Source: Escherichia coli (lineage in GTDB: Bacteria; Pseudomonadota; Gammaproteobacteria; Enterobacterales; Enterobacteriaceae). From it: a stretch of 64,000 bases of DNA. Shown in pieces: positions 47,726 to 64,000 of this stretch; the first letter of the stretch is position 1, and the number at the start of each line of letters is the position of its first letter. The notes under the pieces are model-generated. The model was not told the DNA's origin, made no database searches, and was given only the letters and a program-made list of their open reading frames with translations. Made by a program: the position numbers and the translations under genes. The stretch is from NCBI RefSeq assembly GCF_011045215.1, contig NZ_CP049201.1; one strand, written 5' to 3'.

Positions 47726-47802
47726 GGAGCGGTAGTTCAGTCGGTTAGAATACCTGCCTGTCACGCAGGGGGTCGCGGGTTCGAGTCCCGTCCGTTCCGC
47801 CA
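47726..47802 (+). tRNA. aspV: tRNA-Asp (GTC), stand-alone copy downstream of dnaQ
   Basis: Sequence identical to the aspU copy at 39502-39578. Confidence 0.95.
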
Positions 47803-47810
47803 CTATTCGA

Positions 47811-47841
47811 GGCCATGCTATTGATTAGCATGGCCTTTTTT
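47811..47841 (+). terminator. aspV Rho-independent terminator
   Basis: GGCCATGCTA TTGAT TAGCATGGCC followed by TTTTTT. Confidence 0.75.
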
Positions 47842-62300: not shown

Positions 62301-63556
62301 CGGAAGTTATCGGTCAAACGAGATGAGTCAAAAACAAAATCGTTGCCGTTTGTGTTAACGGAAAGCACGCCGTCTCCGGTTAATTTGTTCAGAAAACGCC
62401 AGCGCTGAGATGTCTCTATGGACAGCGTGCCGCCGTTAAGCAATACCGTGTTGGCGCCAATATTTTTTGGGTCCGTTATTAAGAGGCGGGCCGGAGAGTC
62501 GATAGAAAAATAGCCATGAAAATTCGAGTTATCACCGGCAAGCGCGGATAGGCCGTTCAACATATTGACGCGGCCCTTGCCACTCAAATTCGCCGACAGA
62601 GAAAATAAAGCGCTGGCATGATTAAATGTCAGAACGCCTTCCCTGAAGCCGAAAATAATCTCTTTGGTATTAATATTTCCGGCGGCGACAGCCTGCTCGC
62701 CGGCCCTTGCTCCAACGGCAAGCTCTCCTTTCCTGCCTCCTTTGGAAATGATAATTTCTCTGGCGCTTAGCAGGCCATTATCGGAGGCGATCGCTGTGGC
62801 TGTTCCATCCCAACCTACAATAAGCGTCGCGTCCGTCGAGATGACAGAGCCGGCCCCGGCTACCTGAAGCAGATTATCATAGCCGGCAGTTTCCAGCTGA
62901 TTCCCGACCTGAATATTCGCGTCAGCATGCGTCTTACCGCCATTAGTGGTTATCAGCGTGCCTGACCCATAGGTCCCGACTATAATTCTGCTTGCGGTTG
63001 CTAACTCACTTCCCGGACCATCAACATAGATACGTCCTGAGGTCGTAGATGACGGCGTTCTTCGGCTACCTATCCATATCCCGCTCCAGGTATTGTCCGA
63101 GCCGTGATGAAATAACTTTCCTCCCTGAGTAATATTTACCACGCCGCTTCCGTTTCCCATACCAACCTGTAAAGAACGATTTTTTTTGTCAATCGTAACT
63201 ATACTTCCTGGTCCGCTAATATTCAGTACCCCATAGCCATCAGGATTTTTTGAATCTGACTTACCGCCAACCAGTAAAGGATCGGTGTAAGTAGATTTGA
63301 TAATGTTCAGTCTGCCACCATCCGTTATATTGACGGTGCCTGTGGAGCCGTGTATCCCTATTTGAAAAAGCTCAGCTTGAACATAACCACCATTAGAAAT
63401 ATTAAGGGTGCCGTCAGTCTCATCACCAATAAAAATCCACGGTTCTTCCCATAATGAATCTATCTTTAACGCTTGGTTATCATTAATGGTTGCAGCTGGT
63501 GCACCGGTTGCACACATTGATGTGATAATAGCGATGAATAATTTACTTACTTTCAT
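59345..63556 (-). CDS. Type Va autotransporter adhesin (AIDA-I/pertactin-type), 1403 aa
   Basis: N-terminal signal peptide MKVSKLFIAIITSMCATGAPAA; long Gly/Thr/Asn-rich repetitive passenger; C-terminal beta-barrel translocator ending ...LGIRVTF. Confidence 0.85.
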   Translation of the reverse strand: MKVSKLFIAIITSMCATGAPAATINDNQALKIDSLWEEPWIFIGDETDGTLNISNGGYVQAELFQIGIHGSTGTVNITDGGRLNIIKSTYTDPLLVGGKSDSKNPDGYGVLNISGPGSIVTIDKKNRSLQVGMGNGSGVVNITQGGKLFHHGSDNTWSGIWIGSRRTPSSTTSGRIYVDGPGSELATASRIIVGTYGSGTLITTNGGKTHADANIQVGNQLETAGYDNLLQVAGAGSVISTDATLIVGWDGTATAIASDNGLLSAREIIISKGGRKGELAVGARAGEQAVAAGNINTKEIIFGFREGVLTFNHASALFSLSANLSGKGRVNMLNGLSALAGDNSNFHGYFSIDSPARLLITDPKNIGANTVLLNGGTLSIETSQRWRFLNKLTGDGVLSVNTNGNDFVFDSSRLTDNFRGTVALQDTAFSLAETNAAALKDLSMKMGSGSLVKVGEGRQTLGGLTFEGGTLLVGEVNPGQKTSPATVHTTGQLDISGQGTVQVTRGTTFSNDRPMPDTLIPLLEQDESNILVRLVSSDGGVIGHGGNLTLTDQNAHVISDTAEADITQHGAVVANATYDYRLTRGDRDDGLYVNYALTNVDLMDKEADALILNANGKGGNAADLSATLTGDGDLAIDSQKGQTVTLSNLNNDYRGVTNVRSGNLAMLNDNVLGNTRELKLAGDTGFDMRGHSQTIATLTAENGSLTHLNGGQLTLTNGGKASGVLAGNGQLNVAGGTLSISGNNPELQATTAIMQGAKVVLDHTLGAGTGNIVAAGTLSVRYAAGRLYNSLSDAGQVELIDSDVVLAGTNRAFSGQFTVNTGSQMTALTADSLGAAEVHNSGSLVLNGDNNWRLDNTVYGSGRVIKLGTGTIALGDNAAWTGQTDIKQGGLLLGNNASPATLASSQVDIAQPGMLAGIGGVAGNINNAGTLQVGAHHEENHRFTVGGDLINSGLLATGFKGHQAGNQLVINGNYTGRKGYLTINTALGDDHSVTDELVVKGDTHGETTVSVVNAGGTGAQTLNGIEVIHVDGHSDGEFIQAGRIVAGAYDYSLGRGQGENSGNWYLTSGKTNPDPAPTPDRHDDLRPEAGSYIANLAAANTLFVTRLRDRQGETHYIDTLTGKEAITSLWLRNAGGHTHQQDSSGLLGMQANRNVTQLGGDIFEWSSDSADRFRLGLMAGYANQKTRAENQLNGYRADSRISGYSIGLYGTWLQTPEGAYVDTWAQYNWFDNTVSGRGVGVEAYESKGFTASLESGYTWKLARTGERNALYIQPQAQITWMGVRADDHQEANGTRVKGQGDGNVQTRIGVRLFGKGHSQLDEGMARTFQPFIEANWLHNSKEFGVSMNGDNINLAGTRDVGELKAGVEGQLSKYVSLWGTIGQQVGDKGYSDTAAVLGIRVTF

Positions 63557-64000
63557 AAAAAGCTCGGCGAATAATATGGATTGCCCCGTTGAGGAAAATT
63601 GACAGACGAGTCAGACCTGACAATGCTGCCGGTTCTGTGTGCTTTGAGCTGAAATCCTTATCTGGCAACGTATTAACAAGGTCTTTGTGCTAAGGAAAAG
63701 TTTATGGAAAAAGATCTGAAAAGTGCTTACTGCAAACTGAATAAATCTTACTTTTTTCTTACTTGTTTGACTTCTTTTTAGACTGAACGTAGGGTGCATT
63801 TGAATGAGAGGATAGTGCTGTTTGATTGATCAATAATAAAAATTCAGTACAGTGACGGAATATCTTATTTTATTATTGTCATACACTTCAGCGCGCCGGG
63901 CCGATCATTAGCAGAGAGAGATTATTCATAGAGATAACGAAGAAACCCTATCGTTAAAGTAGAGTGATAATGAATGCTACCAAATTTTTGTTAGACGGCA

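Follow-up and report, generated by a model that had tools for sequence, protein, structure and literature searches.

The 64,000-nt Escherichia coli sequence analysed here (the window) contains, at positions 47803-64000, what is very probably the attL part of a CP4-6/CP4-57-type integrative island that entered the last 13 nt of the tRNA gene aspV by means of a P4-family tyrosine recombinase. The island belongs to an ordinary, well-known mobile type, and the only unusual part of it is its rare adhesin and signalling cargo. The features of the region are listed in Table 1; the gene calls lean on the RefSeq annotation of the corresponding locus of strain PapRG-06-5, which is 99.2-99.9% identical.

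Table 1. Features at and downstream of aspV in the window.
Feature	Position	Strand	Evidence or remark
aspV, tRNA-Asp(GTC)	47726-47802	+	ARAGORN; Rfam RF00005, 67.7 bits; probable target gene of the island
attL core GTCCGTTCCGCCA	47790-47802	+	3'-terminal 13 nt of aspV; second copy at the island's far end in relatives
Intrinsic terminator hairpin and T-run	47809-47843	+	12-bp stem followed by TTTTAT
Two GTATGCCAT repeats, 12 nt apart	47858-47878	+	Candidate arm-type integrase binding sites (P' arm)
DUF4942 pseudogene, two ORFs (47935-48168, 48240-48803)	47935-48803	-	Pfam PF13708
DUF957 protein	48860-49063	-	RefSeq annotation of identical WP_000413747.1
DUF5983 (YeeW-like) protein	49095-49586	-	Pfam PF19419/PF25638 on identical contig
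CbtA-family type IV toxin	49583-49960	-	60% identity to K-12 YkfI; PF06755
CbeA/YeeU-family antitoxin	50011-50370	-	66% identity to K-12 YafW; PF06154
DUF987 protein (YkfH/YeeT-like)	50394-50615	-	PF06174
RadC-family JAB protein	50636-51115	-	NCBIfam TIGR00608, 147.9 bits, over cut-off
Antirestriction protein (PF03230)	51127-51597	-	phrog_10132, E 1e-53
DUF932 protein (YafZ-like)	51865-52683	-	PF06067
DUF905 protein	52803-53036	-	PF06006
IrmA-family secreted protein	53113-53565	-	PF18673
Deletion-made fusion ORF	53625-54134	-	Junction 54047/54048; BLAST of window versus PapRG-06-5
Hypothetical protein, no family match	54116-54691	-	
IS debris: IS3-family transposase fragments around an intact IS110-family gene (55207-56358)	54789-56836	-	
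Cargo: CSS-motif and EAL cyclic-di-GMP phosphodiesterase	57243-58790	-	Pfam PF12792, PF00563
Cargo: 1,403-aa AIDA-I-type (type Va) autotransporter adhesin	59345-63556	-	PF18883, PF03797
Start of winged-helix regulator gene	63970-64000	+	PapRG-06-5 annotation; island runs past window end

The aspV gene was left intact by the insertion, and the boundary lies exactly at its 3' end. When a 601-bp junction probe (47560-48160) was compared with 5,426 complete E. coli genomes, 287 (5.3%) covered at least 80% of it and were counted as carrying the junction, while in essentially all others the match ended at probe base 243 or 249, corresponding to window position 47802 or 47808; this homology break was seen in more than 5,100 genomes. 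Because the match of most genomes stops there, the boundary is exact and the content beyond it is accessory rather than core, as a preliminary description of the sequence had claimed; its statement that aspV is followed by yafT in K-12 also held. Identity at attL can run on to 47808 (CTATTC) where the attB flank permits. The terminator just downstream comes from the island, in place of the one native to aspV; it is unlike those that follow empty aspV sites in K-12 and T6SS-type genomes. The tRNA was the only Rfam match between 47000 and 64000. The GTATGCCWT repeats are short, and their whole-sequence counts are just modestly above chance (four matches in 64 kb against 0.83 expected), with two of the four adjacent at the island edge; PapRG-06-5 has three more copies, in the stretch that separates the start of the integrase gene from the core. 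Given that the integrase of that strain has an arm-DNA-binding domain, the repeats may serve as its arm-type sites.

Neither an integrase gene nor attR lies within the window. The only second copy of the aspV 3' end in the 64 kb belongs to the rrn-linked tRNA-Asp gene (39502-39578), so the far junction must be outside, beyond base 64000, where it had been expected. The EAL/autotransporter cargo occurs in just one of the 5,426 complete genomes, that of PapRG-06-5 (ST8525), which came from a Guinea baboon in The Gambia; window positions 54048-64000 are 99.94% identical to its 45-kb island (NZ_CP048605.1, 2088300-2133610). The far end of this island, 45 kb away, carries a full-length 402-aa P4-type tyrosine integrase (NCBIfam PRK09692, E 6e-51; Pfam Arm-DNA-bind_3, PF13356, Phage_int_M, PF22022, and Phage_integrase, PF00589). 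About 170 bp past the integrase start codon there is a direct repeat of GTCCGTTCCGCCA, and an intact attR is expected to read …CAAGCGGAC GTCCGTTCCGCCA…. The preliminary description had named both a P4-type integrase and an aspV 3' repeat as things to look for downstream; both are present in PapRG-06-5, the repeat as a 13-nt subset of the suggested 18-mer. A search of PapRG-06-5 for the full 25-nt aspV 3' end with up to three mismatches gave no match, and direct reading of the sequence confirmed that the repeat is only 13 nt long. The same 13-mer is also found at attR of SRR11014962 and GCA_905133645.1. Taken together, the site, the repeat and the far-end integrase support the earlier proposal that the window holds the integrase-distal end of a tRNA-targeted island.

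The empty site was predicted as a chimera of the aspV side of the window and the right flank of PapRG-06-5 attR. This predicted attB is contiguous in 79 genomes (100% coverage, 98.3-98.7% identity). K-12-type empty sites gave no match to the attR flank of PapRG-06-5 but do match that of SRR11014962. The boundary on the island side (...caagcggac|GTCCGTTCCGCCA) is unchanged next to three different natural aspV flanks, namely T6SS/ImpA in PapRG-06-5, the K-12 yafT type in SRR11014962 and an AATTC-yafT type in GCA_905133645.1. These data effectively refute the idea, which we regard as extremely improbable, that the arrangement is an inversion artefact, in which recombination between a canonical island of a different tRNA gene (in the order tRNA, integrase, cargo, toxin-antitoxin end) and a homologous CP4-like module inverted part of the chromosome and so brought the toxin-antitoxin end to aspV, with no integration at aspV itself. 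CP4-like modules are indeed found at several places per genome (median four), and the orientation seen here is opposite to that of CP4-57 at ssrA; nevertheless, the break coincides precisely with the 3' end of aspV, the integrase end carries the core repeat in direct orientation, and CP4-6 of K-12 has this orientation as its normal state. A toxin-antitoxin end next to the tRNA is neither odd nor a mark of decay but the regular orientation of this island family.

On this evidence, the circular form of the island would have an attP with core GTCCGTTCCGCCA, flanked on one side by the integrase gene and three GTATGCCWT arm-type repeats and on the other by two more repeats, the replacement terminator and the DUF4942/CbtA-CbeA end, so that the circle junction is predicted to read …CAAGCGGACGTCCGTTCCGCCACTATTCGAGGCCATGC…. 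Recombination of attP with aspV would restore an intact tRNA gene, place the toxin-antitoxin end against it and leave the integrase approximately 41-45 kb off, beside the old aspV flank. The island comprises a conserved tRNA-proximal end (DUF4942, DUF957, DUF5983, CbtA, CbeA, DUF987, RadC, antirestriction, DUF932 ... GTPase), a conserved integrase-proximal end (int, a small ORF, YagK/YfjJ, YfjI/DUF3987, AlpA and a 614-aa ORF) and, between them, a variable cargo bay, filled in this variant by putative surface and biofilm genes.

Between 47935 and 63556, the PapRG-06-5 RefSeq annotation and the ORF list both place every coding sequence on the minus strand, in agreement with the preliminary description apart from the first 31 bases of the winged-helix gene, and G+C ranges from 38% to 58% along the island stretch. 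As that description had also noted, the first genes are a toxin-antitoxin module and a disrupted DUF4942 gene; the latter matches positions 1-91 of PF13708 in one ORF (48240-48803) and 117-189 in the other (47935-48168), and RefSeq labels it 'frameshifted' in PapRG-06-5 and ATCC 8739. The adjacent PF06755 and PF06154 genes are predicted to form a type IV CbtA/CbeA toxin-antitoxin pair and are homologous to characterised pairs, among them YkfI/YafW, for which this function has been described (PMC5371832). The order and families of the conserved string GTPase ... DUF932, antirestriction, RadC, DUF987, CbeA and CbtA, which marks CP4-6/CP4-44/CP4-57-like elements, were confirmed, the GTPase being absent from the window only because of a 3,757-bp deletion private to this copy. 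The deletion took the 5' part of a DUF4339 gene (encoding the N-terminus), two hypothetical genes and the genes for a YfjS/YafY lipoprotein, a WYL regulator and the GTPase, all of which are still present in PapRG-06-5 and ATCC 8739. Further on, the IS110-family transposase (55207-56358) is supported by NCBIfam NF033542 (228.5 bits) and by RefSeq annotation, the CSS-EAL gene sits in DNA of 38-41% G+C, and the autotransporter matches the TIGR01414 beta-barrel model with 395.8 bits while scoring under the cut-off of every named equivalog. Most of the island's small DUF proteins lack an NCBIfam model, and PADLOC returned no defence-system match for the unassigned ORFs and the conserved 614-aa ORF.

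The historical 'CP4' label implies a decayed temperate phage, and the P4-family integrase, the AlpA-type regulator, several PHROG matches of unknown function and the antirestriction and RadC families might point to such a phage or to a P4-like satellite. Either origin is very unlikely, however, and the prophage reading was rejected: the PHROGs matches of the window and the annotation of the whole 45-kb PapRG-06-5 island include no genes for capsid, tail, terminase or lysis and none of the P4 genes sid, psu and delta, and the cargo consists of adhesins, regulators and IS elements. Relaxase or type IV secretion genes, as expected of an integrative conjugative element, are likewise not annotated anywhere in the 45-kb island. 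The conserved module of the integrative island is found with other cargo elsewhere, including sil/pco genes in ATCC 8739 and a type III restriction-modification system in GCA_905133645.1. On plasmids, the search for the cargo returned just distant relatives of the autotransporter (64-67%).

The integrase is carried by 41 of the 5,426 genomes, compared with the 287 that have the junction, and ATCC 8739 has neither integrase nor attR, its far end being IS-scrambled. This integrase has thus been lost from most islands of this type, most copies of which are probably immobile remnants. The earlier suggestion of a remnant without integrase holds for most relatives, such as ATCC 8739, and may hold for the window's own strain (SRR11014969). 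A 21-kb contig of that strain, reached through look-ups of the autotransporter and the fusion ORF, is 100% identical and runs 5.2 kb past the window end until it stops at an IS3 copy. Together with PapRG-06-5, it shows that the cargo past the window includes paired winged-helix regulators, an Ail/Lom protein and a LuxR-type regulator, while PapRG-06-5 and two other samples alone showed, in addition, a chaperone-usher fimbrial operon and a second EAL gene. SRR11014969 was never returned by exact protein look-ups of the integrase, the 614-aa ORF, the usher, the chaperone, YagK and the integrase variant P0008. For four distal PapRG-06-5 proteins, such look-ups found two other samples but not SRR11014969; the probability of four misses by chance is approximately 0.04 at the observed SNP density, although a single changed residue is enough to hide a protein from such look-ups, and they read only part of the index. 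In view of these four misses, the distal end may have been deleted or replaced in SRR11014969, a hint that its integrase is gone or altered.

We give about even weight to the possibility that the island in SRR11014969 is an integrase-less relic whose integrase end, and perhaps fimbrial half, was lost by IS3-mediated deletion. Excision would then no longer be possible, and the island would be ordinary chromosome kept by its toxin-antitoxin module; this concerns only the present state and presupposes the same origin. The rarity of the integrase relative to the junction, the state of ATCC 8739, the contig end at an IS3 copy and the four unfound proteins all agree with such a loss. On the other hand, one-residue variants that would escape an exact look-up do occur, given that the autotransporter of the window differs from that of PapRG-06-5 at two residues, and the island is collinear with PapRG-06-5 as far as the SRR11014969 contig can be followed. 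The CbtA/CbeA pair probably helps to keep the tRNA-proximal module in place after the integrase end is lost.

The island has spread horizontally. Its DNA is near-identical in at least three aspV flank contexts, while the adjoining backbone near dnaQ is approximately 2% divergent from PapRG-06-5 and matches no complete genome at more than 99.2% identity. Based on this combination, it is conceivable, though rather doubtful, that a still-mobile aspV island with near-unseen adhesion and cyclic-di-GMP cargo is now moving between deeply divergent E. coli of wild Gambian primates. The cargo in question would be a novel AIDA-type autotransporter, two CSS-EAL phosphodiesterases, a chaperone-usher fimbria and paired winged-helix regulators, and, if so, a host-niche colonisation island would have been caught while spreading.

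Our analysis mainly confirms textbook biology, namely that the aspV tRNA gene is a hotspot and that CP4-type islands have two conserved ends and a swappable cargo bay, and it opens no long-standing question. What it adds, of modest value, is an exact 13-nt att core with candidate arm sites for a P4-family integrase that is specific for aspV and occurs in at least five enterobacterial genera, its 90% cluster covering E. coli, Salmonella, Klebsiella, Enterobacter and Serratia. It also provides a population count in which the toxin-antitoxin-bearing end outlives this integrase approximately sevenfold (287 versus 41 genomes), and a rare surface-protein cargo common to divergent strains, whose hosts all appear to be non-human primates.

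Integration at aspV is well documented and makes the gene a hotspot (PMC7545054), at which PAI-CFT073-aspV and the T6SS island of UPEC and EAEC 042 are also located (PMC7545054, PMC2808357). In PapRG-06-5, the present island is placed between aspV and the T6SS cluster. The genes of those two islands (Pic, Hma, TosA, Fbp, T6SS) are unrelated to the ones described here, and the CFT073 island is 100 kb in size. ATCC 8739 and approximately 285 other complete genomes have an identical attL junction, the replacement terminator and the GTATGCCAT repeats. The conserved module of the ATCC 8739 type is 99.0-99.3% identical over window positions 45500-54047 and keeps the 3.76 kb absent from the window copy, but its cargo differs, the sil/pco genes conferring copper and silver resistance. 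PapRG-06-5 carries the same island variant as the window and supplies the integrase, attR and the full 45-kb structure, differing in that it retains the 3,757-bp segment.

Two K-12 islands are also related in type. CP4-57 at ssrA has a PRK09692-type P4-family integrase with alpA, yfjI and yfjJ as a module close by, and a toxin-antitoxin pair at the opposite end; its integrase adjoins the target gene, whereas that of the aspV island is distal. The YpjF/YfjZ toxin-antitoxin pair of CP4-57 has been described (PMC5371832). CP4-6 differs in its target, thrW rather than aspV, in its cargo (argF, mmuPM and xylonate genes, compared with the EAL protein, autotransporter and fimbriae of the aspV island) and in an end without the DUF4942, DUF957 and DUF5983 genes. 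The toxins of the two islands are 60% and the antitoxins 66% identical, but the integrases just 19%. In CP4-6 too, the tRNA gene lies on the plus strand, and the genes directly after it, on the minus strand, encode a CbtA-family toxin and its antitoxin; next come DUF987, RadC, an antirestriction-like gene, DUF932 and a GTPase. The layout is identical, thrW(+), ykfI(-) ... intF(-), with the integrase at the far end, reading inward.

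The DNA that follows the tRNA-Asp gene aspV is accessory and begins exactly at the 3′ end of the tRNA. Upstream of aspV the gene order (yafS, rnhA, dnaQ) is the same as in K-12, where the locus continues into yafT, as the preliminary description had stated. A 601-bp probe spanning the aspV/island junction was covered over at least 80% of its length in 287 of 5,426 complete E. coli genomes (5.3%), and in nearly all the remaining genomes the alignment stopped at probe base 243, which is the last base of aspV (47802), or at base 249, six bases on (CTATTC). The content beyond aspV is thus not core, and the break is base-exact at the tRNA 3′ end; the refuting condition set in the preliminary description, the same genes at this site in most E. 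coli genomes, is answered in that description's favour. Up to 63556, every annotation-supported ORF reads on the minus strand, as had been described, and the G+C content after aspV runs from about 50% to 58%, 38–41% and 57%, a mosaic typical of acquired DNA. A second tRNA-Asp gene, behind an rrn operon, matches aspV exactly and carries the same core (the last 13 nt of aspV) with no island; its 3′ flank (CTTATTAAG…) is unlike that of aspV. This suggests that the core alone is not enough for target choice, or that rrn-operon insertions are selected against.

Features of the aspV locus and the island within the window
Feature	Position	Strand	Remark
tRNA-Asp behind rrn operon	39502–39578		Second copy, without island
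tRNA-Asp(GTC) aspV	47726–47802	+	ARAGORN, Rfam agreeing
Terminator for aspV	47809–47843		New, supplied by the island
Two GTATGCCAT repeats	47858–47878		Just inside attL, the aspV-side junction
Fusion ORF	53625–54134		169 aa, created by deletion
IS110-family transposase gene	55207–56358		Intact; between IS3-family transposase fragments, within 54789–56836
CSS-EAL and autotransporter genes	56900–64000		Cargo

The whole stretch was present in only one complete genome, that of E. coli PapRG-06-5 (PapRG; ST8525, Guinea baboon, The Gambia; PMC7643976). Beyond the end of the window, PapRG carries winged-helix regulators, Ail/Lom and a LuxR-type regulator, then IS3, a chaperone-usher operon and IS630, then a second IS3 and a second EAL gene; a conserved block comes next, comprising a 614-aa ORF, AlpA, YfjI/DUF3987, YagK/YfjJ, a small ORF and a 402-aa tyrosine integrase. 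This enzyme aligns with the P4/CP4-57-type model PRK09692 along its entire length (E 6e-51) and has arm-DNA-binding, middle and catalytic Pfam domains. About 170 bp past its start codon lies GTCCGTTCCGCCA, the last 13 nt of aspV in the aspV orientation, followed by a native-looking aspV terminator and tssA/ImpA of a T6SS cluster, giving an island of about 45.07 kb. Both the downstream repeat and the P4-type integrase that the preliminary description proposed to look for are therefore present at the far end of the island in PapRG. The two IS3 copies of PapRG, in direct orientation (40057–41219 of its piece L001 and 45096–46258 of L002), flank the chaperone-usher operon, and about 9 kb would be lost if they recombined; the contig of the window's strain stops at the first copy.

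A predicted empty site, built as a chimera of the aspV side of the window and the right flank of the far junction (attR) of PapRG, was contiguous (dnaQ, aspV, tssA) in 79 complete genomes at 98.3–98.7% identity. The same island-side boundary, …caagcggac/GTCCGTTCCGCCA, was also fused to two further natural aspV flanks, the K-12 yafT-type flank in sample SRR11014962 and an 'AATTC' yafT-variant flank in GCA_905133645.1, whose island carries a type III restriction-modification system as cargo. A single island boundary in three empty-site (attB) contexts is predicted by site-specific integration and not by inversion or illegitimate recombination. The A/C difference directly after the core in PapRG confines the crossover to these 13 nt. 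The GTATGCCAT repeats and three GTATGCCWT repeats between the integrase gene and the core in PapRG are plausible candidates for arm-type sites.

In the sister island of GCA_905133645.1 (L021 5004–11544), whose integrase is 96% identical, the restriction-modification genes (ResIII/RE_endonuc plus N6_N4 methylase) occupy the cargo bay directly behind a conserved 615-aa ORF, which follows AlpA in every variant seen. In SRR11014962 (L012 1–9484) the neighbours of the integrase end are yafT and a T6SS cluster of another kind (VasI/VasJ/IcmF/VasL type), showing that which of the two T6SS types the same island adjoins varies with the host.

Starting from aspV, the genes within the window are DUF4942, disrupted as described from the sequence and lying in two ORFs, DUF957, DUF5983, the equally anticipated toxin–antitoxin (TA) module of a CbtA-family toxin and a CbeA/YeeU antitoxin, DUF987, RadC, an antirestriction protein, DUF932, DUF905, IrmA, IS3 debris with the IS110-family transposase gene, a CSS-EAL cyclic-di-GMP phosphodiesterase and a 1,403-aa AIDA-I-type autotransporter, which fell below the cut-off of every named equivalog. 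The toxin and antitoxin are 60% and 66% identical to YkfI and YafW, an experimentally characterised K-12 pair (PMC5371832). The NCBIfam name for the IS110-family match is 'RNA-guided transposase'; Rfam gave no match to a linked non-coding RNA at 54789–56836 and no RNA family beyond the tRNA in 47000–64000. No phage structural genes were found among the PHROGs matches, and PADLOC detected no defence system in the unassigned ORFs and the conserved 614-aa ORF. The CSS-EAL (38–41% G+C) and autotransporter (57% G+C) genes occur together in 1 of 5,426 complete genomes, and no close plasmid counterpart of this cargo was found.

A Logan contig of SRR11014969, a sample of the window's strain, is 100.000% identical to 47775–64000 and extends 5.2 kb past the window, following PapRG collinearly with 8 mismatches in 14.7 kb and ending at the IS3 copy. 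When four distal proteins were looked up by exact sequence, PapRG and two further samples were found but SRR11014969 was not; such look-ups are fragile, and the probability of four misses through SNPs alone is ~0.04, so the integrase may or may not be kept in this strain. Compared with PapRG-06-5 and ATCC 8739, the window lacks 3,757 bp through a clean deletion at 54047/54048, with no microhomology at the junction. The deletion, seen only in this strain, spans the 5′ (N-terminal) part of a DUF4339 gene through a GTPase gene and takes the WYL regulator gene and the YfjS/YafY lipoprotein gene with it. The window differs from PapRG at 6 of 9,953 positions in 54048–64000, whereas 45 positions differ in the 2.2 kb left of aspV. 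Island and backbone have separate histories, which indicates that the island was acquired or exchanged horizontally. The best match to 24 kb of the backbone (1–47700) among the 5,426 genomes reached 99.0–99.2%, and the host lineage is therefore a sparsely sampled one. The best backbone matches include the baboon isolate PapM-32-1.

The integrase was found in only 41 complete genomes, compared with 287 carrying the junction. ATCC 8739 shares the junction and the conserved module and carries sil/pco cargo, but has neither integrase nor attR; distally, its island passes through IS elements and an rhsG remnant before reaching yafV. Survival of the TA-bearing end after loss of the integrase end is thus common, and a stabilising role for CbtA/CbeA is consistent with this survival, without being proved by it. 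The 90% cluster of the integrase has 113 members, the named ones coming from E. coli, Salmonella, Klebsiella, Enterobacter and Serratia.

Taken together, the non-core content, the exact tRNA boundary and the PapRG repeat and integrase confirm the observation of an accessory island after aspV and support its interpretation as tRNA-targeted. New here are the definition of att for this integrase and the rare cargo. The TA end beside the tRNA, remarked on in the preliminary description, is no oddity: CP4-6 of K-12, with thrW(+), ykfI(−), yafW(−) … intF(−), has exactly the same layout, so the orientation characterises the island family and does not point to rearrangement. The element falls within the already known CP4-6/CP4-57 class of integrative islands, and aspV is among the E. 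coli tRNA genes most often targeted, being host to PAI-CFT073-aspV and a widespread T6SS island (PMC7545054; PMC2808357). As a whole the finding is an ordinary one, a known class of island at a known hotspot.
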